Shown: positions 5,468 through 57,112, counted from the stretch's first letter. The stretch is DNA of 64,000 nt from Myxococcales bacterium (GCA_049841135.1 JASGHK010000008.1:275272-339271), one strand, 5' to 3'. Numbers and translations: made by a program. Notes: a model not told the origin generated them from the letters alone.

Positions 5468-5583
5468 CGCTCATTTCCGCCAGCAAATTCCCACGGTTGC
5501 CTCGGGCCTCCGGGACAGGCCTCGGAGACAACTTCGCCTTCAATGTTCCGATAATTCTCAGGATTTCCGCCCTCGAGGTCCCC

Positions 5584-14140: not shown

Positions 14141-14303
14141 CGCTTCGCAGGAGGCGTGAAGGAACCCTGCTAAAGATAGGCACCCTTTTTGTGACATGAG
14201 TCTGGCGCCCGCCGTCCCGCCCAGTCGTCACAGGTGCTCTTTCCGCTGAGAACGAGTTCAAGCTGTCGCAGAGAACGGGTTCGTCCGTGGTTAGATCCAC
14301 GGC

Positions 14304-14858
14304 ATGGGCCTCTTGACCTTCGGACTCAACGTGACGCTGGACGGGTGCTGCGACCATCGCGTGGGGATCGCGGACGACGAGCTGCTCGACTACTGGACGC
14401 AGCTCATGGACGCAGCCGGTGCGATGCTCTGGGGGCGCGTCACCTACGAGCTGATGGAGAGCGCCTGGCCGGCGGTGGCGCGCGACGAGAACGCCCCGCG
14501 CGCGACGCGGGAGTGGGCGCGCAAGCTGGAGGCCAAGCCGAAGTATGTGGTGTCGTCATCGCGGCGCGACTTCCCGTGGAGCAACACCTTCCGCATCGAA
14601 GGGGATGTGCACGAGGCCGTGAAGCAGCTCAAGGAGAAGACCCCGCAAGGCGTGCTCGTGGGCAGCCCAACGCTGTCGGCCGCGCTCGAGCGCCTAGGGC
14701 TGATCGACGAGTACCGTTTCGTCCTCCACCCGGTCCTCGCTGGCCATGGGCCGACCTTGTTTCAGGGCCTGCAGCCCTCGCGGCAGCTCGCGCTCATCTC
14801 GACGAAGCGCCTGAAGTCCGGCGCGCTGGCGCTCCACTACCGACGCCAGGCGGGATGA
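14304..14858 (+). CDS. Dihydrofolate reductase family protein (RibD C-terminal-domain type)
   Basis: 184 aa matching DHFR-like proteins: LDGCCDH, ...ELMESAWP, ...VVSSSRRDFPWSNTFRIEGDVHEAVKQLKEKTPQGVLVGSPTL. Confidence 0.7.
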   Translation: MGLLTFGLNVTLDGCCDHRVGIADDELLDYWTQLMDAAGAMLWGRVTYELMESAWPAVARDENAPRATREWARKLEAKPKYVVSSSRRDFPWSNTFRIEGDVHEAVKQLKEKTPQGVLVGSPTLSAALERLGLIDEYRFVLHPVLAGHGPTLFQGLQPSRQLALISTKRLKSGALALHYRRQAG

Positions 14859-15087
14859 CGCTCGGCTCGGGGTCGATCGCGCAGGGCGGTCCTCGTCGTC
14901 GACGGCCCGCCGCGAGCCGTACGCGGCGCCTTCCTCCACTGCGCGCCGAAGGACATCGTGAGCGCGGACCTTCATCCGTGCAGGTAGGCCGGCTGCCGTC
15001 TGCGGGCATCAAGCAGCTTGTGCGGCGAACGGGGAACTCTCAGGCTCCGCCGCGGCGCCAGACCTCGAGCACCTCGGACCTGCGTCT

Positions 15088-15859
15088 TCAGCTCCCGGCA
15101 GACGCGACCTGAGCCACGAAGCGAGCGAGCGCCTCCCAATACGTTTCCGATGCGGCGACGTCGTTGTGACCGCGGCCTGGGACGAGCACCAGTTCCTTCT
15201 TCTCCGCCCCGGCCGCTTCGTACGCCCGCTTCCCCTCGGTCGGCGAGATGGACTGATCCTGCTCGCCGTGAAGCACCAGCAGCGGGAGCCTGCCTCGCGC
15301 GAGCTTGGGCAAAGGATCGAAGGTTGCCTTTTCGGCGTCATCGAAGGAGTCAGGCGCCTCCAGACCTCGTCGCCGGATCAGCGCGGCCAGGTCCACGAAC
15401 CCGCTCTCGAAGACGACGGCGCGGACGGACGAGTCCAGGCTCGAGCCATACAGCTCCGCCGCACACGCCGAGCCGAGCGACCGCCCCATGACGATGATCG
15501 GCTTGCCGGCGGCCTTCGCCACGACTCCCGCCAGGACCGTCTGCGCGTCTTCGATCGCCAGGCGCAGCGTGGGCCTTCCCCGGCTCTCGCCGTACCCGCG
15601 GTAGTCGACGACCGCCAGGTCCACGCCCGCTTTCCGGAAGGACTCGGCCAGCGGGTCGTAGTCGGCCACCACCTCACCGTTGCCGTGGAAGAGCAGCAGC
15701 GTCGCCCGCGTGTCCGCACCGTGGTGCCAGCGCAGGTGCAGGCTCGCCCCAAGTACTTGGACCCGCAAGATCCTCCGCGCCCGCCGGTGCCTTGTGCACG
15801 AAGGGCCGGGGAAAGAAGAGCCGCTTGTTGAAGACGTCGCTGTCGAGGATGGAGGTCAT
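15088..15859 (-). CDS. Alpha/beta hydrolase (frameshift near 15775)
   Basis: The N-terminus MTSILDSDVFNKRLFFPRPFVHKAPAGAEDL is encoded in one frame (tail of ORF 15674..17965). The rest, RVQVLGASLHLRWHH...LLLFHGNGE...VMGRSLGSACAAEL, is in ORF 15088..15768. Nucleophile elbow GRSLG. Confidence 0.65.
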
Positions 15860-39455: not shown

Positions 39456-39691
39456 CGCGGCCCTCCCCCCTGCCCCACCCAAATTGCGGGAGGGGGTTAG
39501 TCGGTTGCCTTCGGCTACCTCGGTCGAAGCGCTTCGCACCTCCGCGTCCTCCGAGCCGGTCTTCTCGGCGCTCGAATGGGTTCGACGCACGCGGCCCATC
39601 GACCGCTCCGATGACATCATTCGGTGCCATCTGTTGGGTCTATCGCCGCGGCGATCGGTACCTTGCCTCGCCGATGTGAACGCGACCGCCT

Positions 39692-41092
39692 ATGGGCGAG
39701 ATCCGCGCCGACTCCGTCGCCATCTCCCAGGGCCTCGAGCGCGCAGCCCGAACTCCTCGAAGACTCATGGAGACCTCCTTGGCCGACTACGACTGGAATC
39801 GAATCAAAGCCCTCAACAACGGCGAGCCCGTCTTCTGCTGCGGTCCGGTCCTCGATACGCCAGAGGAGGTCTGGTTCTACATCCCGCCGACGTTCCTCCA
39901 CCCGGAGCTGCGGATCTGGAGCCGCGGAAAGCTCGCCGAGGCGGTCGAGACGACGCCCACCGGCCCGGTGGCGCGGCGCGAGGCGCTCTACCAACTGCTC
40001 GGGGAGCTCTTCGTCGAGATCGAGGTGCGCGGCGACCAGGCCATCGTGCGCCGCGGCAACCTCAACGGCGCCTACTTCGCCTCCCTCGCCCCCGCCTCCG
40101 AGGTCGACGGGCTGCTCGCGTGGTACCGCGGCCTCGGATTCGCCGACGGCTCGCCCTGGCACGCCACGCCGACCAAGGTCGCCAAGCGGACCTTCGCCAA
40201 GCCTCCACGGGTCATCGACCTCTGGGTCGACGGCAACTATCTCGTCGAGTGGCCGCGGGGCGCCGAGGCGCAGATCACCGAGCTGAAGAGCCGCGCCGAG
40301 GCCGAAGCCGCCGCCAGCCTGCGCGTCCAGGCCCTCGGCGACGACGGGATGCGCCTGCACGCCATCGAGCTCAAGGCCGCGACGCAGCCCAACCCGCCGA
40401 TCGTCTCTTCACGTCCAGCTCCGGAGCGCAGGCCTCCCGCCACGATCCCCGAGCCGACCAACGCCTTCGAAGCGGTCGATGCGGCCATCGCCACGCTCGC
40501 CGACCTGCACGACCGCCATCGCCGCGGGCACATGGTCCTCGAGCGCCTCGGCAGCGACGACCCGCGCATCGCCGAGCTCGGCCACGACAGCGAGTTCTTC
40601 CGCAAGCTCCACGACCACCGGTTCGCACGCTGGGCCAGGCTCGCCCAGGCCACCGAGCCCTCGATCAGTGAGTCCTCCTTCGCCTACTTCGAGCGCCGCT
40701 ACGGCGGCATCACCTGGATCATCAGCCCCAGCCTCGATGCGAAGGTCGCCGGCAGCCACGTCGACGAGCTGAGCGGCGGCGGCTACAGCCCGCTGCAGAT
40801 CGAAGCCTCTGGCACCTACGACATCGCGGAGCTGGCCGAGGCCAAGGGCTCTCCGGACCTGAACCACCTGCACGTCTTCCACGGCGGCTCGCACCACGGC
40901 TACTCCTTCGCCCTCGATCGGCGCTTCACCTCGCCCACCGGCGAGCACCCGGTGATCCCCTTCGACGAGGGCGCGCCGGAGCTGCCGGCTTCGGCTCCCA
41001 ACGAGATCCAGCCCTTCGGCTTCTGGTTGCTCGAGCACGTCAGGGCGATCGCGGAGAAGGTCGAGCCCGCCCTGCGCGAGGTCGACGGATGA
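39692..41092 (+). CDS. Hypothetical protein (possible start at internal Met ~39767)
   Basis: 466-aa ORF with balanced composition and no recognisable motifs. Confidence 0.45.
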   Translation: MGEIRADSVAISQGLERAARTPRRLMETSLADYDWNRIKALNNGEPVFCCGPVLDTPEEVWFYIPPTFLHPELRIWSRGKLAEAVETTPTGPVARREALYQLLGELFVEIEVRGDQAIVRRGNLNGAYFASLAPASEVDGLLAWYRGLGFADGSPWHATPTKVAKRTFAKPPRVIDLWVDGNYLVEWPRGAEAQITELKSRAEAEAAASLRVQALGDDGMRLHAIELKAATQPNPPIVSSRPAPERRPPATIPEPTNAFEAVDAAIATLADLHDRHRRGHMVLERLGSDDPRIAELGHDSEFFRKLHDHRFARWARLAQATEPSISESSFAYFERRYGGITWIISPSLDAKVAGSHVDELSGGGYSPLQIEASGTYDIAELAEAKGSPDLNHLHVFHGGSHHGYSFALDRRFTSPTGEHPVIPFDEGAPELPASAPNEIQPFGFWLLEHVRAIAEKVEPALREVDG

Positions 41093-41140
41093 CCGCGGTC
41101 GGTCGCTGGAGAGCGTCGCGGGCCTCTTCGCCGCCAGGCG

Positions 41141-41356
41141 CTAGTCCGCTCCCCACAAGTAGAGGTCCTCGACCTTCTTGCGCGCCCAGGGCGTTCGGCG
41201 CAGGAAGGTCAAACTCGACTTCACGCTTGGGTTGTTCTCGAAGCAGCGGATGGGGATCAGCTTCGCGAGCGAGGCCCAGCCATGCCGCTCGACCAGGGTC
41301 GTGACGATGGTCTCCAGCGTGATGCCGTGGAGCGGGTCCTTGTGTCCGGTCGTCAT
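41141..41356 (-). CDS. VF530-family (DUF2132) small putative DNA-binding protein
   Basis: 71 aa: ...[56 protein letters not shown] matches the conserved VF530 core. Confidence 0.65.
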
Positions 41357-41759
41357 CGGCGCTCCCGTTCCCCTCGCGCGCAGACCCTATCACCGCCGAG
41401 TATTCCGAACGCCGCCTCTTGAGAGTCGGCGCATGCTGCCACTCGTTCGCCGCCCAGCAGCGCAATCGGGACGCGCGGACTGCGTTCAACGCGGGGCCCT
41501 GTGCGCTGAGGCGGAAATTGAAGAGCCAGTGCGGGTGCACGCCCGTGCGGCCACGCGAACGGGTGAAGGACCCGCCGTGCTCCGCAGCCATTCGGCGGCC
41601 CAGCCGTTCACCTCCCACCTGCCGGTGCCGAACAGGGATCTGCGCGAACAACGAGCAGGCCCGTGCTGCGGTCCCGGCGTGCCTCAAACCAGCGGACATC
41701 CAGAAGTGCTGCGGCTAACGTCCGCGGCTCTCGCGTTCGCGTTCAGGAGATGCTGATTC

Positions 41760-42401
41760 ATGACTGCCGACAACAACGAGCCGACGACGTACCACCAGAT
41801 CCCCGGCGCGAGCTGGAAGAAGGTCGCCACGCAGGAGGCCCGCAAGGCCTACGACGTCATGGCGGTGACCCGGGGCAGCATCGGCCTGGAGGACCTCTTT
41901 GGTGTCGAGCCTGAGCACTTCCTGATCCACCGCGGCGACTTGCACCTTGTCGGCCCCCAGCGCTTCAGGCACGTGCCCGACCGCGACAACCGCACCATCT
42001 TCGTCGTCGATGGCAGCCTGACCGTCGATGGGGCGCTCGCGCTCGACAACTCCGACGCCTACACGCCGCTGTGGGTTCGCGGCTCGCTCACCGCCACCGA
42101 GCTGGTGCTTGCCTGCGATGCGTGCTTGTTCGTCGAGGGGCAGCTGGAGGTGAAGGGCGTGCTGGTCACCGATCTCAGCGACGCGGGCCACCTAGTCGTG
42201 CATGGAGCCACCGCGGCCAAGGCGTGGATCAAGTCGGGCGGTCGCGGCTGCGTCGAGCTCGGTGGGAAACCCCAGGCGCGAATCATCGGAGACGGGGGTG
42301 ACGCGATGGACCAGGCGTTGCGACCGGACGTCTTTCACGGGGGCGATCGCTTCACGGAGCTCCGTGACGCCCTCCTTGCCGGGGCGCCGGTCCTCAAGTA
42401 G
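41760..42401 (+). CDS. Hypothetical protein
   Basis: 213-aa ORF with protein-like composition. No family assigned. Confidence 0.45.
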   Translation: MTADNNEPTTYHQIPGASWKKVATQEARKAYDVMAVTRGSIGLEDLFGVEPEHFLIHRGDLHLVGPQRFRHVPDRDNRTIFVVDGSLTVDGALALDNSDAYTPLWVRGSLTATELVLACDACLFVEGQLEVKGVLVTDLSDAGHLVVHGATAAKAWIKSGGRGCVELGGKPQARIIGDGGDAMDQALRPDVFHGGDRFTELRDALLAGAPVLK

Positions 42402-42492
42402 CGGCCCCTCCTCTGGCCACCTGCCGCTGGCCCCCAGGCGTACGTCGCAGAAAGGTCGGGCTCGACTTCACGCTCGGGCCCTGGAGCCGGCC

Positions 42493-44074
42493 ATGGCCAA
42501 GCCCAAGCCCGACGCGCCGCAGACCCTGCGCCAAGCCGCCGCCTCGCTCGCGGTCGAGCCCGACGGCAGCTTCTTCTTCGCCTGCGGCCCCGGCGCCTAC
42601 CTCAACGGCAGCTGGAACGGCTTCGGCCGCTTCGACGCCGCCTCGGGGAAGGTCGCCAAGGTCGAGGCGCCGTTCAGCGGCCCCATCGCGCACCTCGGCG
42701 GCGACGTGGTCGGCCTGGAGCGCAAGTACGAGAAGGACCACTTCGTCTACGTGCTCAAGCGCGCCGACCGCATCAGCGGCGCCGTCCAGGCCGTCTTCGA
42801 GCCGCTGGAGCTCGAGGTCCAGGGCCTCGCGCCGAGCCCCAACGGCGGCTGGATCGCGGCGGTCGGGAAGGGCGAGGTCGCCGTCTTCGATCCCTCGGGC
42901 AAGAAGGTCGAGTCGCGCAAGGCCCAGGCGGCGTGCTTTACCGGGCCCGATGAGCTCCTCTACGCCACCTTCGCCACGACCGCGCGCCGCGACCTCGCCA
43001 CAGGCCGCGAGACTCCGGTGGACATCAAGGACAAGGTCTCGCTCCACGGCGTGCTGCGCCCGCGCGATGGCTGGGTGCTCTCGCCCCGAGGCGAGGTCCT
43101 CGAGCTGTCCACCGGCAGGGCGCGAGGCTCGGCCGCGGGACGTACTGCTGGGGCGTCGAGCCCGGGACCGTGGTGCGCTCCACGTTCGAGGGGATGGTCG
43201 AGGTGCTCGAGCTCGACGGCAAGGTCCTGCACTCGTTCGCGCGGCCGCGGGGCCGGGACATCCTCCAGGCCTGGACCGCCGCCGGCTGGTACGTGCTCAC
43301 CACCGGCACCTTCATCGAGCGCTACCCGCTGGCCAGAGCGGACTCGCTCCCGAAAGAGCGCGCCGAGCGCAAGCTCCCGTCCGCCCGCAAGCCGGTGACC
43401 TCCGAGGCCGACCAGGACGCCCGCGCCGCCCAGCTCCTCCAGGCCTACTTCGACCGCCCCGACGACCCCTCGCTCCTCGCCGTCTGGGCCGACGTCCTCG
43501 CCGAGCACGGCGATCCCCGCGGCGAGTTCATCCAGCTCCACCTGATCGGCCAGCAGGCGACGCCCGGCGGCTCGAGGTCCTGCGCGCCAACGGCGGCGGC
43601 AAGATGGTCGGACCGGCCCGGGAGTTTCTGCGCTCCTGGCGCTTCGGGGAGAATGGCCTCGTCGAGCACGCGACCTGCGAGGCCCAGAAGCTCGCCGAGG
43701 GCTTCGCGGCCATCGCGATGCTCAGCCCGCAGCTCTCGCTGCAGGTCACCTCGCTGCGCAAGAGGACCAAGGCCACCGTCCCCTTGCTCGCCAAGCTCCC
43801 GCTCGGCCGCGTCCCCACCCTCCACTTCAGCTCCAACTTGATGACCGACGCCGTCCTCGCGCAGCTCGCGCCCGCGTTCTCGGGCGTGCGCAGCCTCTCG
43901 CTCGAGTACAACGAGCTCACCGCGGACGGCCTGCTGAAGGCGCTGCCCCACCTGAAGAGCGTCAAGGAGCTCCAAATCGACCGGCCCCTGGCGAACGACC
44001 GCTCGGTCCGCGAGGCCCTCCTCGAGCAGCTTCCGGCTCTCGAGCTCCTCAACCAGGAGAAGGTGCGCGGCTGA
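42493..44074 (+). CDS. TIGR02996-type repeat-companion domain plus leucine-rich-repeat protein. Two frameshifts (~43130 and ~43570) spread it over three frames
   Basis: The segment QLLQAYFDRPDDPSLLAVWADVLAEHGDPRGEFIQLHL resembles the repeat-companion domain (..ADWLEE.GDP.R.EFI.L). C-terminal LRRs read LSLEYNELTADGLLKALPHLKSVKELQID. The three pieces are ORF 42202..43398 (from MAKPKP), ORF 43170..43841 and the tail of ORF 42950..44074. Confidence 0.6.
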
Positions 44075-44379
44075 CGGTCGTCGAGGGGGTCCGGTCGTGG
44101 CGAGGCGGTGCTCCACGACCTCGGTCGTCCGCTGGAGGAGCCTCGCGGGCCCTGGCGGCGACAGAGCGTAGATTTCCTCGCGACGCGAGCGAACGATGAC
44201 GCGCCTGAACAGGAGCGTCGGGAGCGCCCGCCTGAGGATGAGTCGACCAGACCCACGCCGAGCTTGGAGACGAGCCCGGACAGCGCGGGACTATCGCGGA
44301 GGGTCCGCCGGTTCCAGGCGCCTTCGGTCGAGAAGCTCCTCGGACGGGCTCGGGGCGGCGGCGGGGAGGTCGGACGAGC

Positions 44380-45141
44380 ATGACGCACGCAGGGAGTCGA
44401 GGACTTCGGTTCGGAGGGAGAGGTAGCGCTGAACCGAAGGCGCGGTCGAAGACCTCGGCGAGGAAGGCCGTGGCCTGGGCGATCGCCTTGGCGGCCACTG
44501 CCGCCAGCATCTCCTCGGCGAGCGCGATGCCGGCCACCATCGTCGACCAGATGACCGGGGCCCAGTTCGTCGAGCGCCCGGTCGTCGGCGGCACCGCGTT
44601 CCACTGCCTGGGCGTCGGCTCGCGCAAGGCGTTCGTCTTCAAGCTCTACTCGGTGGCGTTCTGCCTGGAGTCCTCCTCGGCGGACCGAGTGCTCGACGAG
44701 GCGCTCGGCTGGCACGGCCAGGAGCAGGGCAGGACGCTCGCCAAGTCGCTCGAGCGGGACGAGCGGCTCTTCGCGGCGCTGGCCTCCGCCCCGGGCGACA
44801 AGATGATCGTCCTGCGCTTCGCGCGAAACGTGAACCGCGGGCAGCTCGAGGGAGCGCTGCGCGGCGCGCTCGACGACATCCTGCCCGCCTCGGACGTGGC
44901 GCGCGTCGTCAGCGCCGCCGCCTGCCCGGACGGCGTCAAGGAAGGCGAGGTGGCCCTCCTGCGCTCGAAGGGCGACCAGTTCGTCGTGGAGCTCGGACCG
45001 GTCCAGCGCGTGCTCTCCCGAGCCGAGACCATCAACGAGCGGCTGTGGGGCATCTGGCTCGGCCCGCACAGCTCCACGTCCAACCTCAAGGAGTCCATCG
45101 CGACGCGGATCGCCCGCGCCCGCGACAGCTCGCTGCGCTGA
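44380..45141 (+). CDS. Chalcone-isomerase-like (CHI-fold) family secreted protein
   Basis: Signal-like AVAWAIALAATAASISSASA. Bacterial CHI-like signature VVGGTAFHCLGVGSRKAFVFKLYSVAFCLE. Start codon uncertain. Confidence 0.55.
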   Translation: MTHAGSRGLRFGGRGSAEPKARSKTSARKAVAWAIALAATAASISSASAMPATIVDQMTGAQFVERPVVGGTAFHCLGVGSRKAFVFKLYSVAFCLESSSADRVLDEALGWHGQEQGRTLAKSLERDERLFAALASAPGDKMIVLRFARNVNRGQLEGALRGALDDILPASDVARVVSAAACPDGVKEGEVALLRSKGDQFVVELGPVQRVLSRAETINERLWGIWLGPHSSTSNLKESIATRIARARDSSLR

Positions 45142-46861: not shown

Positions 46862-47950
46862 TCAGCTCCGCACCGTCGCCGGCACCACGTAGGGCATGGT
46901 GTCCGCCGTGGCCCTGCGCCCGAGCGCCGTGGCGAAGATGTAGCCGTCCACGACGTAGTGGATGAGCAGCGGGCTGAGAACGAACATCGCGTAGTACTGC
47001 TGGAACCTCAGGTGCCACGGATCCAGGTGCGAGAGCCCGGCGACCCCGGCCAGCACCGCCGAGGTGACCGCGAAGCAGCCGCCCCAGAAGCGCCAGGGCT
47101 TGCCCGGCGCTGCCATCCAGCGGATGGCCGGTGAGGCGACGAAGCCCTGCTGGCTGCGCACGCTCTGGATGAGCCAGACGAGCCCCAGGTACTGGATGGA
47201 GTGCCAGGCGTTGACGCCCTGGAACGCCAGCTCCAGCTTCCCGCCCTGCTCGGCCATGGGCACCACGAAGGCCACGAAGGTCGTCACCGCGATGAGCAGC
47301 GTCTTGGGCCGGTTGAGCACTCCGCGGCGCGTCTCGAGCGCGGTCTTGAGGAGCCACGCCGCGAGCAATGCGAAGAAGACCCCGAACACCGCGTAGTAGG
47401 TCGCCGGGACCAGCAGGAACTGCGGGATGAGGATGCGCGTGTGCCCCAGCGTGAACTCGCCGCGCACCAGCTTGTAGGCGGCCAGGGGGTAGATGCTCGT
47501 CATCAAGAGCCCGTAGTCGAGCCACCGCGACCAGCGCGGCTCCGCCCGGCCCAAGCGCAGCCGGTACACGTCGGAGAGGTAGGCGTTCTGCTGCAGCACG
47601 TGCAGCGAGGCCATGAACAGGAAGGTGCTGATGAGGATCTCGTAGTCGTGGATGGCCCAGTAGACGACGAAGGCCGGGACAATCAGCGCCGCGAGGACCA
47701 GGACGAGCCAATGCGAGCGGCGGAAGCGCGGGTCGAGGTAGGTCGCGGTGTAGGTGGAGAACAGGTGCGGTCCGCCGATGAGCGCGGTGACGCCGAGGTT
47801 CACCAGGTCGTTCGAGGCGCCCGCCTTGACCACCAGCAGCACCAGCGGCACGACCAGCGCGCTGCCCACCAGCCAGCGCAGGTCCCAGCCGCGCCCATTG
47901 ATCCACCCGCCGGGGCTGCGCCCCTGCCACGCCACGCTCGCCAGCTCCAC
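46862..47950 (-). CDS. Polytopic integral membrane protein of unknown function
   Basis: 362 aa, at least 8 predicted TM segments, Trp/Tyr-rich. Confidence 0.5.
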   Translation of the reverse strand: MELASVAWQGRSPGGWINGRGWDLRWLVGSALVVPLVLLVVKAGASNDLVNLGVTALIGGPHLFSTYTATYLDPRFRRSHWLVLVLAALIVPAFVVYWAIHDYEILISTFLFMASLHVLQQNAYLSDVYRLRLGRAEPRWSRWLDYGLLMTSIYPLAAYKLVRGEFTLGHTRILIPQFLLVPATYYAVFGVFFALLAAWLLKTALETRRGVLNRPKTLLIAVTTFVAFVVPMAEQGGKLELAFQGVNAWHSIQYLGLVWLIQSVRSQQGFVASPAIRWMAAPGKPWRFWGGCFAVTSAVLAGVAGLSHLDPWHLRFQQYYAMFVLSPLLIHYVVDGYIFATALGRRATADTMPYVVPATVRS

Positions 47951-47994
47951 GCGCGCCCCCCTCGAAAGACTCCACAGACGCCCACGTTGCGCAC

Positions 47995-48250
47995 TCGGCG
48001 CGGGCCGGGAGGGCCTGCTCCCCGAGCGGGAGCGGCCTCGCTTGCTGCCCGCTCAGGTGGCCTGGGCTGGACTGCGCGCCCAGCGGTTGGGGCCACCACC
48101 CGAAAGCGATTGGAGTTCATCGACGCCGCGCGCACCCTGGCGACTGCGCTGATGGCGCAACGTCACGTCTGCGACAACCTGCTCTGCAGGTTCTCCTTCG
48201 TCGTCGCCAGCCACCCTGCCTGGAAGGAATCCAGGCACCGGCCCGCCAGC
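47995..48250 (+). pseudogene. Truncated, diverged copy of the promoter and first ~60 codons of the acyltransferase-like gene at 54774 (internal ~95 bp deletion)
   Basis: 47995-48180 aligns at ~88% identity with 54690-54880 (gggcctgctccccgagcg.gagcggcct.gcttgctgcccgctcaggtggcctgggct.gactgcgcgcc...gtcacgtctgcgacaacctgctct). Then 48185-48240 aligns with 54935-54990 (ttcgtcgtcgccagc.accctgcctgg). Confidence 0.7.
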
Positions 48251-48465
48251 CCTTGGCGATGGGGCGGGGATCGAGCCAGGCAGGGCCGGCAACTTGGGCC
48301 ACGTGGCCCAAGTAGGTGCCGTGGACCAAGTAGTCCCGGGCCGCCGGGGCCTTTGCTACACGCTCGGAGCCCGGATTGACCGCCTAGGCCTGCCGCGGCG
48401 ACCGATGCTCCCGGCAGGTGCTGGAGGACGACCTCCAGCTCAATCTCGACCTTTCCCAAGGTCCC

Positions 48466-51400
48466 TCACGCGTTGCTCGGCGGGCCCTCGGCGGCGACGG
48501 CGAGCGCCCTCCGCTCGGCCCGGCCCGCGAGGACTGCGTAGAGCGTCGGGAGCACCAGGAGGGTCAGCGCGGTGGACGTGATGAGCCCGCCCATGACGAC
48601 CACCGCGAGCGGCTTCTGGATGTCCGCCCCGGACCCGGTGGCGTAGAGCATCGGCAGGTGGCCGATGAAGCTCGTGAGCGCCGTCATGAGCAGCGGGCGG
48701 AACCGCAGCTCGCAGCCCTTGCGGACCGTCTCGGAGACGCTCTCGCCGCGCTCCCGCAGCTGCCTGAAGAAGGCCACGAGCACGACGCCGTTCTGCACCG
48801 CGATCCCCAGCAGCACGATGAAGGCGACCGCGGCGGAGACGGACAGGGGCATCCGGAAGAGGACGACGGCGATGACGCCGCCGACCAGCGCGAACGGGAG
48901 ATTGAGCAGCACCAGCAGCGAGTGGCCGACCGAGCCGAGGGCCAGGTAGAGGAGCACCAGAATCAGCAGGAGCGCGATGGGGACCACGATCTCCAGCTGC
49001 CGCATGGCGCGCTGCTGGTTCTCGAACTGGCCGCCCAGCTCGATGAAGTAGCCGGACGGCAGCTCCTTCTGGATCGGCGCGAGGCCCGCCTGCACGTCCT
49101 CCACGAAGCTGCCAAGGTCGCGCCCGCGCACGTTGCACTCGACGACGACGCGCCGCATGCCGTTCTCGCGGCTGACCTGCGCCGGCGCTTCGACCATCGA
49201 GACCTTGGCGAGCTGGCCGAGCGGGACGCGCTCGCCCTTGGGCGCGGCGATGAGGAGCCGCTCGATCTCGGGAATGTCAGCGCGGGCCGCCTCGGGGAAG
49301 CGCACGACCACCGCGAAGCGGCGCTGGCCCTCGATGAGGGTGGACGCCTCGCGACCAGCGATGGCCGTCTCGATGGTGTCGTTGACGTCCGAGACGTTGA
49401 TGCCGTAGCGGGCCACCGCCTCGCGGTCGATCTCGGCGTCGAACTGCGTCATGCCGGAGATCTGCTCGACCTTGACGTCCTGGGCCCCGCGCACGCCCAT
49501 GAGCACCGCGGCTCCCCGGTCAGCGAACTGCTTCAGCACCTCGAGGTCGGGGCCGAACACCTTCACCGCGAGGTCGCTCTTGACCCCGGAGATCAGCTCG
49601 TTCACCCGCAGGGCGATGGGCTGGGAGAAGGAGTAGCGAAGGCCTGGGATCTGGGCGAGCTCCTCCTGGATGGCCTTCGTCAGCTCAGCCTTGTCGCGCC
49701 CGGTGCCCCACTGCTTGCGCGGCTTGAGCATGATGAAGACGTCGGTCTGCTCGGGCCCCATCGGGTCCTCGGAGATCTCCGCGCGGCCCGTCTTGCTGAC
49801 CACGGTGTCGACCTCGGGGAACTTCCTGAGCTGCTTCTCCATGTAGTCGGCGACCTTCACCGAGCCGTCGAGGGCGGCGTTGGGCAGGCGCACCACGTTG
49901 ATGGCGAGCGACCCCTCGTCCAGCGGCGGCATGAACTCGGTGCCGATGAGCGGCGTGAGCGCCCCGGCGGCCACGAGCGTGGCGACGGACGCAGCGAGGG
50001 TGATGCGCGGGTGCCGCACCGTCCCGCCGAGGAGGCGCAGGTAGCCCTGGTGCAGCCGACGGATGAAGAAGAACTCCTTCTCGGGGACCTGCCTGAGGAC
50101 CAGCTCGGAGAGCGCCGGGACGACCGTGAGCGCGACGACGAGCGACACGAGCAGCGCGATCAGCATCGTGAGCGCGAGCGGCGCGAACATCTTCCCTTCG
50201 ATGCCCTGCAAGGTGAACAGCGGCACGAGGATGATGGCGATGATCACCACCGAGAAGCCCACGGGGCGGGCGACCTCGGCGACGGCGGTGGCCACGACGT
50301 GGCGCTTCTGCTCCTTGTCCCGGTGCTCGGCCAGGTGCCGGCGTACGTTCTCGACCACGACGATCGAGGCGTCGACGACCATGCCGACCGAGAAGGCCAG
50401 GCCGCCCAGGCTCATGAGGTTGGAGGAGAGCCCCACCTGCCCCATGACGATGAAGCTCACCAGGAAGGTCAGCGGCAGCGAGAAGACGACGATGAGCGCG
50501 GTGCGCAGCTCCGCCAGGAACAGGAAGAGCACCAGGATGACGAAGATGCCGCCCTCGAGCAGCGCGTCGACCACCGTCTTGATGCACGCCTCGATGAGCG
50601 AGGTGCGGTCGTAGAAGACGCTGATCCGGGTGCCTTCGGGCAGCGTGGACTTCGTCCTCTCCACGGCGGCCTTCACGCGGCTGACGACGTCCTTGGAGTT
50701 CTCTCCCTTGAGCATGATGACCATGCCCGCGACCGCCTCGCCCTTGCCGTCGCGCGTCACCGCGCCCTGGCGCGGCTCGGAGCCGACGACGACGTCGGCG
50801 ACGTCGCGCAGGTAGACCGGCGCCCCGTCCTTGGCCTTGAGCACGATGCGCTCGATGTCGGGGATGTCGCGCAGCAGGCCGACGCCGCGCAGGTACATCT
50901 GCTCCCACCCGCGGACGACGACGCCGCCGCCCGCGTTGGCGTTGTTGCGCTCGATGGACTCGACCACCTGCGCGACGGTCAGCCCGTACTTGAGCAGTTT
51001 GTCGGGCTGGAGCAGCACCTGGTACTGCTTCACGTACCCGCCGAAGCTGTTGATCTCGTTCACCCCGGGGATCGGCTTGAGCAGCGGAGAGACGATCCAG
51101 TCCTGGATCGTGCGCAGCTCGGTGGGGTCGACCTTCTCGCTCTCGAGCGTGTACTGGAAGATCTCGCCGAGCCCGGTGCTGATGGGACCGAGCTCTGGCT
51201 CGACGCCGGGAGGGAGGCTCTCGCGCGCCTGCGCCAGGCGCTCGAAGACGACCTGTCGGGTCCAATAGGTCTCCGAGCCATCCTCGAAGACGATGACGGC
51301 CTGCGAGAGCCCGGCCTTCGAGAGCGAGCGCACCGAGGTGACCTTGGGGAGCCCGCGCATCACCTGCTCGATGGGGTAGCTGACCCGCTGCTCGACGTCG

Positions 51401-51570
51401 ACGGCAGCGAGCCCGGGCGCCTTGGCCAGGATCATCACCTGCGTGTTGGTGACGTCCGGGAAGGCGTCGATGGGAAGGCGGGTCCAGGCGACGTAGCCGG
51501 CGATGACGAGGACGCCGGTCGCGAGCAACACGAGGAACCGAGTCTCGAGCAACCACGTGAAGAATTTCAT
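48466..51570 (-). CDS. czcA: CzcA/CusA-family heavy-metal efflux RND permease
   Basis: 1034 aa from MKFFTWLLETRFLVLL. 12-TM RND architecture with two large periplasmic loops and the conserved DASIVVVEN motif. Confidence 0.85.
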   Translation of the reverse strand: MKFFTWLLETRFLVLLATGVLVIAGYVAWTRLPIDAFPDVTNTQVMILAKAPGLAAVDVEQRVSYPIEQVMRGLPKVTSVRSLSKAGLSQAVIVFEDGSETYWTRQVVFERLAQARESLPPGVEPELGPISTGLGEIFQYTLESEKVDPTELRTIQDWIVSPLLKPIPGVNEINSFGGYVKQYQVLLQPDKLLKYGLTVAQVVESIERNNANAGGGVVVRGWEQMYLRGVGLLRDIPDIERIVLKAKDGAPVYLRDVADVVVGSEPRQGAVTRDGKGEAVAGMVIMLKGENSKDVVSRVKAAVERTKSTLPEGTRISVFYDRTSLIEACIKTVVDALLEGGIFVILVLFLFLAELRTALIVVFSLPLTFLVSFIVMGQVGLSSNLMSLGGLAFSVGMVVDASIVVVENVRRHLAEHRDKEQKRHVVATAVAEVARPVGFSVVIIAIILVPLFTLQGIEGKMFAPLALTMLIALLVSLVVALTVVPALSELVLRQVPEKEFFFIRRLHQGYLRLLGGTVRHPRITLAASVATLVAAGALTPLIGTEFMPPLDEGSLAINVVRLPNAALDGSVKVADYMEKQLRKFPEVDTVVSKTGRAEISEDPMGPEQTDVFIMLKPRKQWGTGRDKAELTKAIQEELAQIPGLRYSFSQPIALRVNELISGVKSDLAVKVFGPDLEVLKQFADRGAAVLMGVRGAQDVKVEQISGMTQFDAEIDREAVARYGINVSDVNDTIETAIAGREASTLIEGQRRFAVVVRFPEAARADIPEIERLLIAAPKGERVPLGQLAKVSMVEAPAQVSRENGMRRVVVECNVRGRDLGSFVEDVQAGLAPIQKELPSGYFIELGGQFENQQRAMRQLEIVVPIALLLILVLLYLALGSVGHSLLVLLNLPFALVGGVIAVVLFRMPLSVSAAVAFIVLLGIAVQNGVVLVAFFRQLRERGESVSETVRKGCELRFRPLLMTALTSFIGHLPMLYATGSGADIQKPLAVVVMGGLITSTALTLLVLPTLYAVLAGRAERRALAVAAEGPPSNA

Positions 51571-51581
51571 GGTGGCTCCCT

Positions 51582-52967
51582 CTAGTCCGCGCAGCCGGCG
51601 CCCATCTTCGAGCGCAGGACGTCCGACTTCAGGAGGAAGGACCCGTCGGCGACGAGGGTCTCGCCGCCCGAGAGCCCGCGCGTGATCTCCACCCAGCCCG
51701 CCCAGGACTTGCCGCGCTGGACGGGGCGGCGGACGTAGTAGTCGTCGTGGTGGTGGACGAAGACGAAGGCGCGTCCCTCGTCCTCGAGCACCGCGTCCTT
51801 CGGGACCGCGAGGACCTCCTCCTTTCCGGGCAGGAAGATCTTCACGTTGGCGAACATGCCGGCGCGCAGCCTGCCCGAGGGGTTCTTGAGCTCGATGCGC
51901 ACCTTCACGGTGCGCGTGGCCTCGTCCATCGTCGGGCCCACGAAGTCCACGCTCCCCGGGAACTCGATTCCCGGGAACGCCTTGACGGTCACGATGGCCT
52001 GCAGGCCGCCGGCGGCCTGGTGGTCGACCACGGCCGCGAGGTCGCGCTCGTACAGGTCGGCCCAGAGCCACAAGGTGCTCAGGTCGCCCACGGTCATCAA
52101 CGGCTCCTCCGACTTCGCGACCTCGCCCGGAACGGCGTGGAGCACGAGCACCATGCCGTCGGAGGGAGCGCGCAGCACCAGGCGCGTGCGAGCGCCTCCC
52201 TGCCCCAGGTTCTTGAGCTCGCCTGGAGGCAACCCGAGCTGGACGAGCTTGTCCCCCGCGGTCCGAGCGCGAATCTGCGCGGCCTCGAACTCCTGCTTCG
52301 CCTGCAGGTACTCCTTCTCCGAGGTGATGCCCTCCTTGCGCAGCTCGGCCTGGCGGTCGAAGTTGCGCTGGGCGAGGGCGAGGGTGGCCTGGGCCTCGAG
52401 GTATTCGCTCTCGGCCTGGCCGTAGCTGACGCTCTCGATCTCGAGCAGCGCCTGCCCTCTCCTGACGTGGTCGCCCAGGTTTACGCTGACCTTGCGCACG
52501 ACGCCCTCCGTCTGAGCGCTGATGTGCGCGACGCGGCGCTCGTCGAAGCGAATCTCGCCCGTCAGGCCGATGGGGGCCTCGACCCGCCGCTTGCCCACGG
52601 TGGCCTTCTTGAGGAGCTGGCCTTCGAACAGGCCGGCGGGGGCCTTGACCACTCCGTTCTCATAGCGGCACTCGTCGCACTCGAAGGTCTTGGTGCCGTG
52701 CTCGCACTGGGTGGCGAAGAGCTCGTCGACCGGCTTGTCGAGATCGCTCTTCTCGCCCGCGTGGCCGTGCTCATCCTTCTCGCCCGCGTGGCCGTGCTCA
52801 TCCTTCTCGCCGTGCTTGTCCCCCGCCTTGCCGTGGCCTTCGTGCTCCCCCGCCTCGCCGGCCTTGGCGGCAGCGGGCTTCTCCTTCGGGGCTTCGGCGC
52901 TCGAGCCGCGGCATGCAGCCAACGACACAGCGGCGACGAGGGAAACGAGGATCTTGGTCGAGTTCAT
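51582..52967 (-). CDS. czcB: RND efflux membrane-fusion (periplasmic adaptor) protein with His-rich N-terminal segment
   Basis: Lipobox LAACRGS. His-rich HEGHGKAGDKHGEKDEHGHAGEKDEHGHAGEK, which includes a 30-bp tandem DNA duplication at ~52745-52805. HlyD-like beta-barrel and hairpin regions. The start ATG overlaps the czcC stop (ATGA). Confidence 0.8.
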   Translation of the reverse strand: MNSTKILVSLVAAVSLAACRGSSAEAPKEKPAAAKAGEAGEHEGHGKAGDKHGEKDEHGHAGEKDEHGHAGEKSDLDKPVDELFATQCEHGTKTFECDECRYENGVVKAPAGLFEGQLLKKATVGKRRVEAPIGLTGEIRFDERRVAHISAQTEGVVRKVSVNLGDHVRRGQALLEIESVSYGQAESEYLEAQATLALAQRNFDRQAELRKEGITSEKEYLQAKQEFEAAQIRARTAGDKLVQLGLPPGELKNLGQGGARTRLVLRAPSDGMVLVLHAVPGEVAKSEEPLMTVGDLSTLWLWADLYERDLAAVVDHQAAGGLQAIVTVKAFPGIEFPGSVDFVGPTMDEATRTVKVRIELKNPSGRLRAGMFANVKIFLPGKEEVLAVPKDAVLEDEGRAFVFVHHHDDYYVRRPVQRGKSWAGWVEITRGLSGGETLVADGSFLLKSDVLRSKMGAGCAD

Positions 52968-54209
52968 CGCGTTTCTCCCAGAAGGAGCTGAAGCCGACTG
53001 CAGTCGAGTTGGGTTTGGAGAAGGGCAGCGAGGTGCTCGCGGCGCGCTTCGCCGAGCACCCGCCGTGAGTCGAGAACGTCGAGGAGCGTCGTCTCGCCTA
53101 TCTGGAAAGAGCGCTCGAGCATGCTGGCGGCCTTCTCGGCGCGGGGCAGGATTCTGCTCCTGGTACCGGGCCGCCGCCTGCTGCCCCTGCGCGCACGAGG
53201 TACGCGCCTCGGTCGCGCTGGCGAGCAGGTCGCGAGTCTGCGCGTCGAGCCGGTGGGACTCGGCCCGTCGCGTCGCCTCGGCCTGCTCGATGCGGCCCGT
53301 GTTCCAGTTCCAGACCGGCAGGGTCACGCCGATCCCGCCGCCGAAGCTCTGGCGATCGAGCTCGTTGGTGAAGAAGCCCTTGATGGAGAAGGCGGGGATG
53401 CGCTGGCGGCGCTCGGCGGTGATCTCCGCGTCGAGCGCGCGCGCGCGGGCCCTGGAGGCGTCGAGCGAAGGGTGGCTCTCGCGAATGGCAGCCATCGCGG
53501 CCTCCAGGTCCGGCACCTTCGGTAGGGCCTCCAGCGCAGCGGGGTCGACCGTCCAGTCCTTCTCGGCGAGTCCCTGGATCCAGAGCTGCAGCTGGCCCCG
53601 GTGAGACTGGAGCTGCGACCGAGCGGCTGCGAGCTCGTTGCGCACGCGCTCGAGCTCCGTCTCGACCCGAGGCACCTCGATGGGCCGCGCCTCGCCCTTC
53701 TCCACGCGGAGCCCGACGAGCTTGGCGACCTCGGTGGCCTGGGCCTCGAGCGCCTGGAGGGATTCGACCCGGGCCTGGTCGAAGGCGGCGTTCCAGAAGA
53801 GGGTGCCCAGCTGCCCAAGGACGTCACGGCGGAGGGCACGAGCCTCGGCCTTGGCTTCTTCCAAGGTCGCTTGGGCTGCGTCGACGCGGGGGCCCCGCTC
53901 GGCCAGCCACTCGAGCGGAACCGTCAGCTCGAAGGCCTGCTCGAACCTGTCCGGGCCGGGGCCCTCCCGTGGGGCGCCGCGCCCGAGCGCCACGTCGAGC
54001 GAGGGGTTGGGGATGGCGCCGGCGGCTGCGATGCCTGCTTGTGCGGCGGCAGCGCGGGCATCCGCCTCACGAAGCCGCGGGTGTTCGTCGACGAGGCGGA
54101 CGACGTCCGCCCAGGAGAGGGGCTGCGACTGTGCGACTGCAGGCGCGGCGGCAAGAGTGACTGCCGCGCCCGCCAAGAGCGCGCGAGCGCTCGGCAGAAC
54201 GTGACCCAC
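52964..54209 (-). CDS. czcC: Outer-membrane efflux protein (TolC/CzcC family), +1 frameshift near 53150
   Basis: The N-terminal ~350 aa in the ORF 51582..54209 frame have OEP-family coiled-coil repeats, up to ...AARYQEQ. The C-terminus AEKAASMLERSFQIGETTLLDVLDSRRVLGEARREHLAALLQTQLDCSRLQLLLGETR* is in the next frame. The junction is at gcCCCCgcg. Confidence 0.7.
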
Positions 54210-54305
54210 GGGGGGCCTCCAGCATGTCCAAGAGGGCGACGCGCGAGGCGATCGCTGCCCGAGGGGCAGCGGTCCGCTTCGCCGCGCGAGAGCAGTGAGC
54301 GATCG

Positions 54306-54623
54306 CTAGGCTGCGCTCTTGGGGACGTGCCGGAGAGGCTTCGGCTCAGGGGAGGCCGGGACGAGGACATCCTCGGCGTGGTGCCGTTCGGCGGGAAGCT
54401 CGAGTCTTGCGACCTTCAGCTGCACCGCGCCTGGGCGAGACGGCGCGTGGCAGGCACACCAGCAAGTGGGCGGGCAGTGGCCTGTCTCGTCGTCGTTGGG
54501 GCAGCTCTCGAAACACTCGATCTGCATCGTCGACGCGACGGCGGCCGTCACCTGGACCCCGCTGAGGAGGCAAATGGCCAGCAGAGGGATGTAGCGCCGG
54601 ACACGTCGCATTGCGGCTTGCAT
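54306..54623 (-). CDS. Small secreted Cys/His-rich protein immediately upstream of czcC
   Basis: Signal MRRVRRYIPLLAICLLSGVQVTAAVAS, then CFESCPNDDETGHCPPTCWCACHAP. Co-oriented with the czc genes, 97 bp upstream. Confidence 0.5.
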   Translation of the reverse strand: MQAAMRRVRRYIPLLAICLLSGVQVTAAVASTMQIECFESCPNDDETGHCPPTCWCACHAPSRPGAVQLKVARLELPAERHHAEDVLVPASPEPKPLRHVPKSAA

Positions 54624-54773
54624 AACACGCGAGTTGTGCTGGCGCCAACCCGCAGAAGTGGGGGGTGGGCGGGCGCACCGCGGCTGAGAACGGTGCTGCG
54701 CGGGCCTGCTCCCCGAGCGCGAGCGGCCTTGCTTGCTGCCCGCTCAGGTGGCCTGGGCTAGACTGCGCGCCCC

Positions 54774-55883
54774 ATGGTCGAGGCCACCGCCCGAAAGCGA
54801 CTGGGGTTCGTCGACGCCGCGCGCACGCTGGCGATGGCGCTGATGGTGCAGGGTCACGTCTGCGACAACCTGCTCTCCCCCGAGGGCAAGGCCGGCTGGC
54901 TCTATCAGCACCACCTGGTCCTTCGCGGGATGACCGGCCCGCTCTTCTTCTTCGTCTCCGGCTTCGCCTTCGTCGTCGCCAGCAACCCTGCCTGGGAGGA
55001 GTACGGGCGTCCCGGACGGCGCCTCTGGGCCCGGCTCAAGCGGGTGGCGACGCTGCTCGCGGTCGGCTGGTTCCTGCAGGTGCCGCGGTGGAGCGGCCCG
55101 GCCTTCAGCCACGCCGAGTGGCGCTACGTCTTCCGCTGCGGCGTGCTGCACGCCATCGCCATCGCGCTCGTGGTGGCGCTCGTCCTCATCGCCGCCACCC
55201 GGACCCGCCGCGCGTTCACCGCCGCCGCCTTCACCATCGCCGTGCTCTCGGTGGTGGTCGGCCACCTCGCCTCGTCGGCGCCGATCCTCCCCGAGGCCGC
55301 CGGGCTGTTCCTGCGCACGCAGGAGGGCTCGCTCTTCCCGGCCACACCATGGATGGCGCACTTCCTCCTGGGGGCGGTCCTGGCGCGGCTGCACCTCGAC
55401 GTGCCCTGGCTCTCGTCCACCAAGCGCCTGGCGCTCTTCGTCGGAAGTGCCGGGGCGATCCTCCTCTCGACCGGGAGGGTCTGGCAGGCGTTCTCGCCGG
55501 TGGACACCGACAACCTCGCCGTCTGGGTCTCGGACCCCGAGGTCTTCCTCGCGCGGGCGGGCATGGCCTGGTGCGCGTTCGGTGCCTTCGCGCTGCTGCT
55601 GGACGGGCTGCAGTCGCGGGCCTGGCTGCAGGCGGTGGCCTCGCACGCGCTGAGCATCTACGTGGTCCACCTGGTCGCGCTCTACGGCTGGCCGGGGATG
55701 GACGGGCTGGTGCAGCGCTTCGGCCCGACGCTCGGCGTGGGCCCGACCTATCTCACCGGACCGCTGCTCTTCGCCGGCTGCGCGCTCTTCGTGGTGGCCC
55801 TCTTCGCAGCCGTCTCGTTCGTCCAGCGCCAGGGGCGCAGCGCGCTGGGACGCCTGTTCCCGGCCGCCGGGGCGCCGTCCTGA
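54774..55883 (+). CDS. Acyltransferase-like polytopic membrane protein (DUF1624 / heparan-alpha-glucosaminide N-acetyltransferase-like)
   Basis: N-terminal RLGFVDAARTLAMALMVQGHV, then about 9 TM segments and the conserved LSIYVVHLV. 369 aa. Confidence 0.6.
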   Translation: MVEATARKRLGFVDAARTLAMALMVQGHVCDNLLSPEGKAGWLYQHHLVLRGMTGPLFFFVSGFAFVVASNPAWEEYGRPGRRLWARLKRVATLLAVGWFLQVPRWSGPAFSHAEWRYVFRCGVLHAIAIALVVALVLIAATRTRRAFTAAAFTIAVLSVVVGHLASSAPILPEAAGLFLRTQEGSLFPATPWMAHFLLGAVLARLHLDVPWLSSTKRLALFVGSAGAILLSTGRVWQAFSPVDTDNLAVWVSDPEVFLARAGMAWCAFGAFALLLDGLQSRAWLQAVASHALSIYVVHLVALYGWPGMDGLVQRFGPTLGVGPTYLTGPLLFAGCALFVVALFAAVSFVQRQGRSALGRLFPAAGAPS

Positions 55884-57112
55884 GCCCGCTCGAGCTCGTC
55901 CGCGAGGCGCTGGCGGCCATCTTCGAGCAGGGCCGCGAAGCCGACCGCGTCCTCGACCGCACCCTGCGCCAGCACCGCGAGCTGTCGAGCGCCGACCGGG
56001 CTGCGGTCGCCCGCCGGGTGCTGGGCATCGCTTGCTTGCGCGGCCGGTTGGACTACCGCCTCGACACGGCCTGCCCAGGATGGCGCGACAACGACCCCTT
56101 TGCGTTCCGAATCGCCGCCTACGTCGCGCTCGAGGAGGGCGCCGGCCTGCAGAGCGCCGGCGCGGCCTCGGGGCTGGCCGACGAGCGAATCGCTGGTCTT
56201 GCGGCCCCTGCGAGCTGGCCTGAGGACCCAATCGACCGGCTCGCCTGCGAGCACTCCCTCCCCCGCTGGCTCGCGGAGCGCTGGCACCGCGAGTCGGTCC
56301 GGAGGCGGCCGCCGCCCTCGCCTCCTGCGTCAACCGGCCGGGCCCCGTCGTCCTGCGCACCAACACGCTCCGCACCGACCGCGAGGGCCTGCTGCGCGCG
56401 CTCGCCGGCGAGGGCATCGCGGCGCGGGCCACGACGCTCTCGCCGCTCGGCGTGAGGATCGAGGGCCGCGCCAACCTCTTCGGCTCGCGAGCGTGGCAAG
56501 ACGGGTTGTTCGAAGTGCAAGACGAGGGCAGCCAGGCGATCGCGCTCGCGGTGGATGCCTGCCCCGGTGAACGGTGCCTCGACTTCTGCGCCGGCGCCGG
56601 CGGCAAGACGCTCGCGCTCGCGGCGGCGATGGGCAACCGGGGCGAGCCTCCTGGCGACCGATGTCGACCCCCAGCGTCTGATCAACCTCGCCGCCCGGGC
56701 CCGGCGCGCCGGCGTCGAGATCGTCCGCACGCGCCGAGTCGACGCTGACCTTCCCCTTCCCGACCTGGGCCTCGCCGACCGCGTCCTCGTCGATGCCCCG
56801 TGCTCGTCGCTGGGGTCGCTGCGCCGCAGCCCGGACCTGCGCTGGCGGCTGCGGCCTGAGGAGATAGCCCCGTTCGCGCGCACCCAGCTGGAGATCCTCG
56901 GGCGCGCGGCCACCTGCGTCCGACCCGGCGGGCTGCTGGTCTACGCGACGTGCACGCTCACCCCCGAGGAGAACGAGGGCGTCGCGGCGGACTTCCTTCT
57001 CCAACACGAGGGCTGGCGACCCGAGCCACTGACCGACGCCGGACCGCTTCGGCTCTGGCCGCACGTCCACGGCACCGACGGGTTCTTCGCCTGCGCCTGG
57101 CGCGCACGTTGA
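55883..57112 (+). CDS. RsmB/Sun-family 16S rRNA m5C methyltransferase. Two frameshifts (~56290 and ~56650) spread it over three frames; start unresolved
   Basis: NusB-like N-terminus ELVREALAAIFEQGREADRVLDRTLRQ in the ORF 54665..56455 frame. SAM-binding DFCAGAGGKTLALAAAM in ORF 56452..56748. Catalytic LVDAPCSSLGSLRRSPDLRWR...LLVYATCTLTPEENEG in ORF 56555..57112. Confidence 0.65.

Follow-up and report, generated by a model that had tools for sequence, protein, structure and literature searches.

Within a 64,000-nt stretch of DNA from a Myxococcales bacterium (GCA_049841135.1 JASGHK010000008.1:275272-339271, hereafter the window), a czc-type metal-efflux operon is flanked by two direct copies of the promoter-proximal region and 5' end of a single acyltransferase gene. 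The arrangement is best explained by horizontal insertion of the operon with duplication of the target, one copy of which persists as a decaying remnant; we put the probability of this core account at about 0.9. The account in full, which includes homology-independent joining of the foreign DNA, is held to be probable, with less confidence. The evidence comes from the substitutions that separate the two copies, from a relative (the Myxococcales metagenome bin L001) that has a single copy of the gene and no operon at this site, and from the affinities and surroundings of the operon in other genomes.

The direct repeat and the age of the duplication

The repeat and the gene from which it derives are as follows.

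48004–48238, plus strand: left repeat copy; the upstream 79 nt are at 48004–48082 and codons 1–79, minus 27, at 48083–48238; a dead remnant
54695–55010, plus strand: right repeat copy; functional promoter-proximal part plus codons 1–79 of the acyltransferase gene, 88% identical to L001
54774–55883, plus strand: intact 369-aa acyltransferase-3/HGSNAT-like membrane protein gene (Pfam HGSNAT_cat 4e-19, Acyl_transf_3 5e-18; third-position G+C, GC3, 0.95)

The repeated unit consists of the 79 nt 5' of the gene at 54774–55883 and its codons 1–79. The left copy, 48004–48238, repeats 54695–55010 in direct orientation, with 203 of 233 aligned positions identical (87.1%). A repeat search divides the match into 48004–48185 versus 54695–54876 (88%) and 48183–48236 versus 54955–55008 (83%), and blastn of the two copies gives 89.7% identity over 175 nt (E = 1.5e-64) and 83.3% over 54 nt (E = 8e-11). 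Missing from the left copy are 81 nt, corresponding to 27 codons in frame, which both the right copy and the outgroup L001 retain; the deletion sits between two TCTCC pentamers, at 54874–54878 and 54955–54959. An earlier, sequence-only reading of this DNA had described the left segment as a copy, about 85–88% identical, of the promoter and 5' end of an acyltransferase-like gene with an internal deletion, and the measured identity and the 81 missing nucleotides agree with that description. Its estimate that the copy spans the first ~60 codons was approximately right: the unit covers codons 1–79, of which the left copy keeps 52.

The longest identical run between the copies is 29 bp and lies in the interior of the repeat, with none at a boundary. 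Homology does not continue past the boundaries, as local alignments of 48239–48392 with 55011–55300 and of 54612–54694 with 47900–48003 score no better than shuffles. No third copy was found by blastn in the 64-kb window, and because only two copies are present there, the left copy is not part of a repeat family, such as the longer unrelated one that the sequence-only reading had named as a possible refutation.

A three-way alignment with L001 dates the duplication relative to the split between the two lineages. The two window copies agree with each other against L001 at 36 sites, while 27 sites are private to the left copy and two to the right copy. Two further loci, L002 and L003, were added as outgroups to polarize the substitutions in the coding part. 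There, the two copies share a difference from L001 at 12 sites; at three of these the change certainly arose, and at six it probably arose, in the ancestor that both window copies share. Since the copies share derived substitutions, the duplication arose in the window lineage after its split from L001. Two right-private changes set against 12 shared ones in the coding part have a binomial p = 0.006 under equal ages, which disfavors a duplication as old as the split. With the duplication placed after the split, L001 represents the true pre-insertion state of the site.

The left copy is dead. Its 21 private changes in the coding part fall at codon positions 1, 2, and 3 in the numbers 9, 7, and 5, compared with 4, 0, and 10 for the 14 changes on functional lineages (Fisher p = 0.013), and its start codon is lost through a change of CATGG to AGCGG (ATG to GCG). 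Because the private changes are spread over codon positions and the ATG is gone, the left copy is a remnant that decays in place. The same spread and the destroyed start codon led us to reject an imported diverged allele as a candidate. Nor is the left segment a functional second promoter or 5' end, and 48004–48238 should be annotated as a pseudogene fragment rather than as a second promoter.

Four left-private changes are clustered at 48186–48194, beside the deletion, and all of them raise complementarity to the preceding GACAACCTGC. The clustered changes (48173–48195) create a 7-nt inverted repeat, AACCTGC tct GCAGGTT. Judged from this pattern, the four changes and the deletion look like the product of one template-switch event.

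The window and L001 differ by 25% at third positions, and private divergence of the left remnant is 12%; the event is therefore old, yet younger than the split. A decaying stub of this kind could be used as a local neutral clock.

The empty site and the foreign operon

L001 was found by scanning species-representative genomes with the acyltransferase, and its protein is 86% identical to that of the window. The locus comes from the nearest relative that has been sequenced, about 84% identical in nucleotides, and is collinear with window positions 36000–64000 at 77–88% identity. Window 46872–48185 aligns to L001 8770–10103 and window 54731–57102 to L001 9959–12329, so that one repeat segment joins the two flanks. 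In L001, the gene to the left of the repeat in the window adjoins a single acyltransferase gene, with neither operon nor duplication between them; the left neighbor protein is 89% identical in amino acid sequence to that encoded at L001 9848–8769, and the gene is native backbone. Continuity with L001 extends through the right copy, whose first 237 nt show 0.88 identity against 0.80–0.90 for the rest of the gene, with no seam at 55010. The more distant L003 and L041/L042, for which upstream sequence is available, also have no czc genes 5' of the acyltransferase gene. Similar duplications were not found at the corresponding slot in L001 and L041, and none of the relatives compared carries the duplication without the operon, an outcome that the sequence-only reading had specified as evidence against it. 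Its proposal that the module was inserted or retained through duplication or recombination at the 5' region of this gene is supported by the empty site of L001. A metagenome scan with the acyltransferase returned no relative closer than 65%, and a protein search with the same query returned no sequence between 100% and 86%.

The gene content 5' of the acyltransferase gene differs among the loci. In L041 (1045–1722) the slot holds nothing extra, and the homologue of the window's 46105 gene stands directly before the acyltransferase gene. In L001 (6309–9848) it holds a 654-aa gene without a Pfam match and the 362-aa membrane protein gene, and in the window the latter together with the czc operon. 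Elsewhere in the collinear region, a segment of ~5 kb (39460–44530) present in the window is missing from L001 and contains coding-like open reading frames (ORFs) at 39692–41092 and 41760–42401 with no Pfam match; L001 12329–13398 is in turn not in the window.

From left to right, the DNA between the two repeat copies, followed by the left neighbor gene, comprises these features.

48239–48392, no strand assigned: junction DNA, left; 154 bp, contains a perfect 22-bp palindrome at 48292–48313
48393–48465, minus strand: P1B-type ATPase remnant; first ~24 codons, aligns to L040 from 13108 onward, the 5' end of an HMA/E1-E2_ATPase gene
48466–51570, minus strand: czcA; 1034-aa HME-RND permease (Pfam ACR_tran 1e-295; NCBIfam TIGR00914 CusA/CzcA 1173.7 bits, cutoff 701.45)
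51582–52967, minus strand: czcB; 461-aa periplasmic adaptor, its N-terminal region rich in His (Pfam HlyD_D23 2e-52; TIGR01730 185.8 bits, cutoff 94.9)
52964–54209, minus strand: czcC; outer-membrane factor (Pfam OEP 5e-29), frame broken by a 1-base insertion at 53152/53153
54306–54611, minus strand: small Cys-rich gene, first of the operon; 101-aa protein carrying a signal peptide, a conserved Cys motif, and a C-terminal HVPK motif; alternative ATG at 54623 (105 aa)
54612–54694, no strand assigned: junction DNA, right; 83 bp found only at this locus, separating the operon start from the right copy
46862–47950, minus strand: left neighbor gene; 362-aa membrane protein, GC3 0.97, 5' end facing the left repeat copy

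The affinities of the operon differ from those of its surroundings. The nearest CzcA outside the source genome is 93% identical and is encoded on L040, which belongs to the same assembly as L002. The next-nearest (90%) is encoded on L038, which belongs to the same assembly as L001 and lies on another contig, between GMC oxidoreductase and HGD-D genes. For the small protein, CzcC, CzcB, and CzcA of the window, in that order, identity is 60, 80, 86, and 93% to the counterparts in L040 and 40, 69, 80, and 90% to those in L038. This closer affinity to L040 is the reverse of that seen for the backbone, where the acyltransferase is 86% identical to the L001 orthologue and 66% identical to the one in L040's assembly (L002).

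Gene context also speaks for a foreign origin. In L040, genes for a DUF2924 protein, a large serine recombinase, and an uncharacterized protein of 171 aa stand 5' of the operon (4165–6775), and a P1B-type ATPase gene (13108–15468) follows it directly, overlapping the czcA stop; by its gene content, the L040 locus looks like a mobile metal-resistance island. Homology to L040 by blastn spans window 48393–54611 and includes the first ~24 codons of the ATPase after the czcA stop. Because these ~24 codons of an L040-type ATPase remain, the insert is a fragment of a larger island, and the ATPase remnant marks one cut end of the imported fragment. At the other end, homology to both L040 and L043 starts precisely at 54611, the small gene's ATG; in L043 the operon stands in another context, beside a MeaB-like GTPase. 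From these comparisons, the cassette is taken to be a horizontally acquired fragment of a larger metal island, one end of which was cut inside a gene. A search of a plasmid collection found czcA genes just ~64% identical.

Composition gives no such signal. The window is ~70% G+C, and its genes were chosen by third-position G+C. The sequence-only reading had proposed a check of GC skew and codon usage across the operon against its flanks, and this revealed no contrast: GC3 of the czc genes is 0.82–0.97 against 0.93 ± 0.03 for the backbone, and G+C content and skew are flat. A donor belonging to the same high-G+C group would be consistent with such a flat composition. What marks the operon as foreign is its phylogenetic incongruence and its gene context rather than its base composition.

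The two junction segments have no recognizable source. The 154 bp at 48239–48392 match nothing in the window or in any fetched locus and are also not a diverged extension of the acyltransferase gene. The palindrome within them, ACTTGGGCCACGTGGCCCAAGT, has no other copy in the window or the fetched loci. The 83 bp at 54612–54694 match nothing in L040, L038, L043, L001, or the rest of the window, and the regions upstream of the L038 and L040 operons have no detectable similarity to that of the window; the 83 bp are probably donor-derived sequence from upstream of the operon.

Between the copies, the sequence-only reading had placed an operon encoding a Cys/His-rich protein, CzcC, CzcB, and CzcA, which is confirmed and lies on the minus strand. 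By its domain content, the operon is assigned to HME-RND metal efflux of the CusA/CzcA family. The solved structures nearest CzcA are ZneA (721 bits) and CusA (640 bits), and 11 nt separate the end of czcB from the start of czcA. The frame of czcC changes near codon 352 through one extra A relative to L040, which puts the last 62 codons out of frame, and the shifted frame continues without a stop into czcB. Deletion of one base at 53152/53153 restores a 414-aa CzcC, the same length as the L040 and L038 orthologues. The extra base reflects either recent inactivation of the gene or an error in the sequencing, and annotation should allow for the possibility that czcC is inactive.

The small protein has the motif C-x-E-x-CP-DDD-x-x-G-x-CPP-x-C-x-C-x-C(C) and a C-terminal SPEP-x-x-ILHVPK. 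No Pfam or NCBIfam model matches it, and its family contains 75 cluster representatives at E<1e-3. The gene stands directly 5' of czcC in all four loci, namely the window, L038 (6987–7298), L040 (6986–7288), and L043 (1027–1332). The protein may act with the pumps in the periplasm, as a metal-binding or regulatory partner.

Additional searches covered the remaining parts of the locus. Folding of the RNA of the czcA 3' region gives stem-loops with a modest z-score of just -2.0, and the left neighbor protein has no Pfam or NCBIfam match. A TAnACT hexamer (54758–54776) precedes the acyltransferase ATG by 9 nt and reads TAGACT in the window gene, TAAACT in L001, and TGGACT in the left copy; it hints at a leaderless or near-leaderless acyltransferase mRNA. 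Scans for a sigma-70 consensus promoter and for intrinsic terminators found none at either junction, and reading TAnACT as a -10 box is an alignment impression only.

Entry of the operon and fate of the repeats

In the account that we favor, 6.46 kb of foreign DNA (48239–54694) would have been joined into the 5' part of the acyltransferase gene after the split from L001, and the joining would have been accompanied by duplication of ~314 bp of the target. The foreign piece would have been cut from a larger island, with one cut just 5' of the small gene and the other ~24 codons into the P-type ATPase gene. Both the promoter-proximal region and the start codon belong to the duplicated stretch, so that the gene on the right would have stayed complete and expressed. 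The left stub, freed from selection, would then have lost its ATG and 81 nt and gained about 12% substitutions. The joining itself was presumably homology-independent, by unequal end-joining or by a template switch between misaligned sister chromosomes that captured a linear fragment; alternatively, the DNA may have been inserted into one copy of a transient tandem duplication. Once in place, the operon would be transcribed from its own 83 bp, divergently from the acyltransferase gene.

No machinery for a dedicated integration event is apparent. Integrase, transposase, and recombinase domains are absent in and around the insert (36–62 kb), and the only coding-like ORFs in 48239–54694 are the four operon genes. 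The insert ends have no inverted similarity above shuffles that could represent terminal inverted repeats and no att-like short identical core, and tRNA gene and Rfam searches returned nothing. The lack of a recombinase, tRNA gene, att core, and terminal inverted repeats therefore argues against site-specific integration and transposition. A transposon or insertion sequence was also tried as a candidate and rejected, given the absence of a transposase and terminal inverted repeats and a duplication of 314 bp rather than 2–14 bp.

The nearest competitor is a Campbell-type integration, in which a circle carrying the czc cassette and a ~314-bp segment of the acyltransferase 5' region entered by a single RecA-dependent crossover, as a suicide plasmid does. 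It fits the final architecture exactly, with the truncated copy continuous with the left flank and the complete copy on the right, and a homologous segment from a sibling strain would account for the derived substitutions of the lineage being present in both copies. Such an event, however, needs a donor in which the cassette and the gene are already neighbors, followed by circularization, and leaves the original insertion still to be explained. No relative has czc genes beside the acyltransferase gene, and the operons of L038, L040, and L043 have no adjoining acyltransferase fragment, although absence from a database is no proof. The insert also contains no replicon, vector, or mobilization gene, and the left-private changes resemble neutral decay in place, not the import of a diverged functional allele. 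Because the single crossover requires a donor of this kind and no such locus was found, we consider it unlikely and favor a homology-independent event or a transient tandem duplication over a crossover with a circle.

A site-specific integrative element that restored the gene targeted at its 5' end and later lost its recombinase would also leave foreign DNA in the 5' part of a gene that is still intact, as such elements do (PMC8409611), and a close relative of the operon adjoins a large serine recombinase in L040. We find this very improbable: 48239–54694 and its vicinity contain no recombinase or excisionase gene, and in place of a short identical core there is a repeat of ~314 bp that is diverged throughout, with its longest run of 29 bp in the interior. 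Moreover, the working 5' end is native, sharing lineage changes with the remnant and diverging from L001 to the same degree as the rest of the gene, and the cassette ends are cuts inside genes rather than element termini. Equally hard to credit is the converse history, in which the duplication and operon are ancestral and L001 lost the operon. Recombination between near-identical 314-bp repeats would regenerate the L001 structure precisely. This history is opposed by derived substitutions that the window copies share and that L001 and the outgroups lack (three certain, six probable), by the two right-private versus 12 changes to L001 (p = 0.006), by the absence of the operon from the site in L041 and L003 as well, and by the closer affinity of the window operon to one from a distant genome than to the operon that the L001 genome carries at another locus. 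The window derives from a metagenome-assembled genome, for which a chimeric contig or chance similarity might be considered. The probability of either is negligible, as the E-values are 1e-64 and 1e-10, misassembly of identical repeats cannot yield a copy that is diverged, start-less, and internally deleted, and both flanks are collinear with L001.

Several observations weigh against our account of insertion with target duplication, in whole or in part. The empty site is supplied by one close relative only, and the comparison genomes are all metagenome bins, so that "same genome" for L001 and L038, and for L002 and L040, rests on binning. Base composition does not mark the cassette as foreign. 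The 27:2 asymmetry between left- and right-private changes exceeds the simple expectation for neutral versus constrained sequence, which is roughly 3:1, and at least four of the 27 left-private changes look like a single clustered template-switch event. As to the joining, it leaves no diagnostic trace, the sources of the 154-bp and 83-bp segments were not found, microhomology at the original joint is unreadable, and a Campbell-type integration would yield the same final structure.

The repeats bear on the later fate of the cassette. The sequence-only reading had suggested that they could mediate excision or amplification, which is plausible only for the time just after the event, when the cassette would have been unstable between identical repeats of 314 bp. 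It is now unlikely, with 87% identity, an 81-nt gap, and a longest identical run of 29 bp. Homologous recombination depends on sequence identity, and because the copies have diverged, RecA-dependent excision or amplification should now be rare. That the cassette survived while its repeats diverged by 13% suggests that it has been useful or at least tolerated.

Tentatively, the locus may record a recombinase-independent duplicative capture, in which a linear island fragment entered in a single event, by joining between misaligned sister chromosomes or by template switching, and a ~314-bp duplication rescued the gene that was hit. Where the duplicated part of the target is long, an insertion into a gene can persist, since one complete copy is kept. 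If the slot has been filled repeatedly in this way, given three gene contents in three relatives, such capture could be a general route to accessory operons for myxobacteria that lack obvious mobile-element machinery at the site.

Comparison with known systems

In its gene content, the operon follows the HME-RND systems CzcCBA, ZneCAB, and CusCBA, with an outer-membrane factor, an adaptor, and an RND permease in C-B-A order and a His-rich N terminus on the adaptor. It differs from them in being led by a 101-aa Cys-rich protein, with no known czcN/czcI or cusF, and in its frameshifted czcC.

Two routes for the entry of DNA provide partial parallels. Homology-facilitated illegitimate recombination (HFIR) requires the incoming DNA to be anchored by homology at one end, and recipient DNA is usually deleted in the process. 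As in HFIR, the foreign fragment here is linear, its arbitrary ends fall within genes, and no dedicated recombinase takes part, but the cassette has no detectable anchor and the target is duplicated rather than deleted. Campbell insertion duplications likewise place direct repeats on either side of an insert, with one truncated and one complete copy, whereas the window has no sign of a circular vector and no donor with the cassette linked to the gene fragment was found.

SXT/R391 elements in prfC and dusA-specific elements target the 5' end of a gene, which is restored upon insertion (PMC8409611). As in those elements, foreign DNA here occupies the 5' part of a gene of which the promoter and full frame are kept on one side. 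Integration of the known elements relies on a tyrosine integrase and a short att core, and the restored gene receives from them a foreign promoter and a diverged N terminus (PMC8409611), whereas the window has no recombinase or att core, a native working 5' end, and a target duplication of ~314 bp. In Streptococcus pneumoniae, Johnston et al. (2013) forced a cassette into a needed gene by transformation and obtained merodiploids (PMC3784515). The outcome is the same, an interrupted and an intact copy, which arise there through unequal sister-chromosome exchange triggered by the incoming DNA (PMC3784515). The pneumococcal duplications measure 100–900 kb and are bounded by pre-existing repeats derived from insertion sequences (PMC3784515), in contrast to the 314-bp unit of the window, which has no pre-existing repeat.

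In outcome, the locus resembles both the prfC/dusA elements and the merodiploids, and it fails the defining tests of the former. It represents a known kind of event, ordinary gene acquisition, and not a new kind of system. Its interest is as a natural example of the entry of an accessory operon without an integrase or transposase, for which both junctions, the empty site, a probable donor-type island, and a dated remnant are available.

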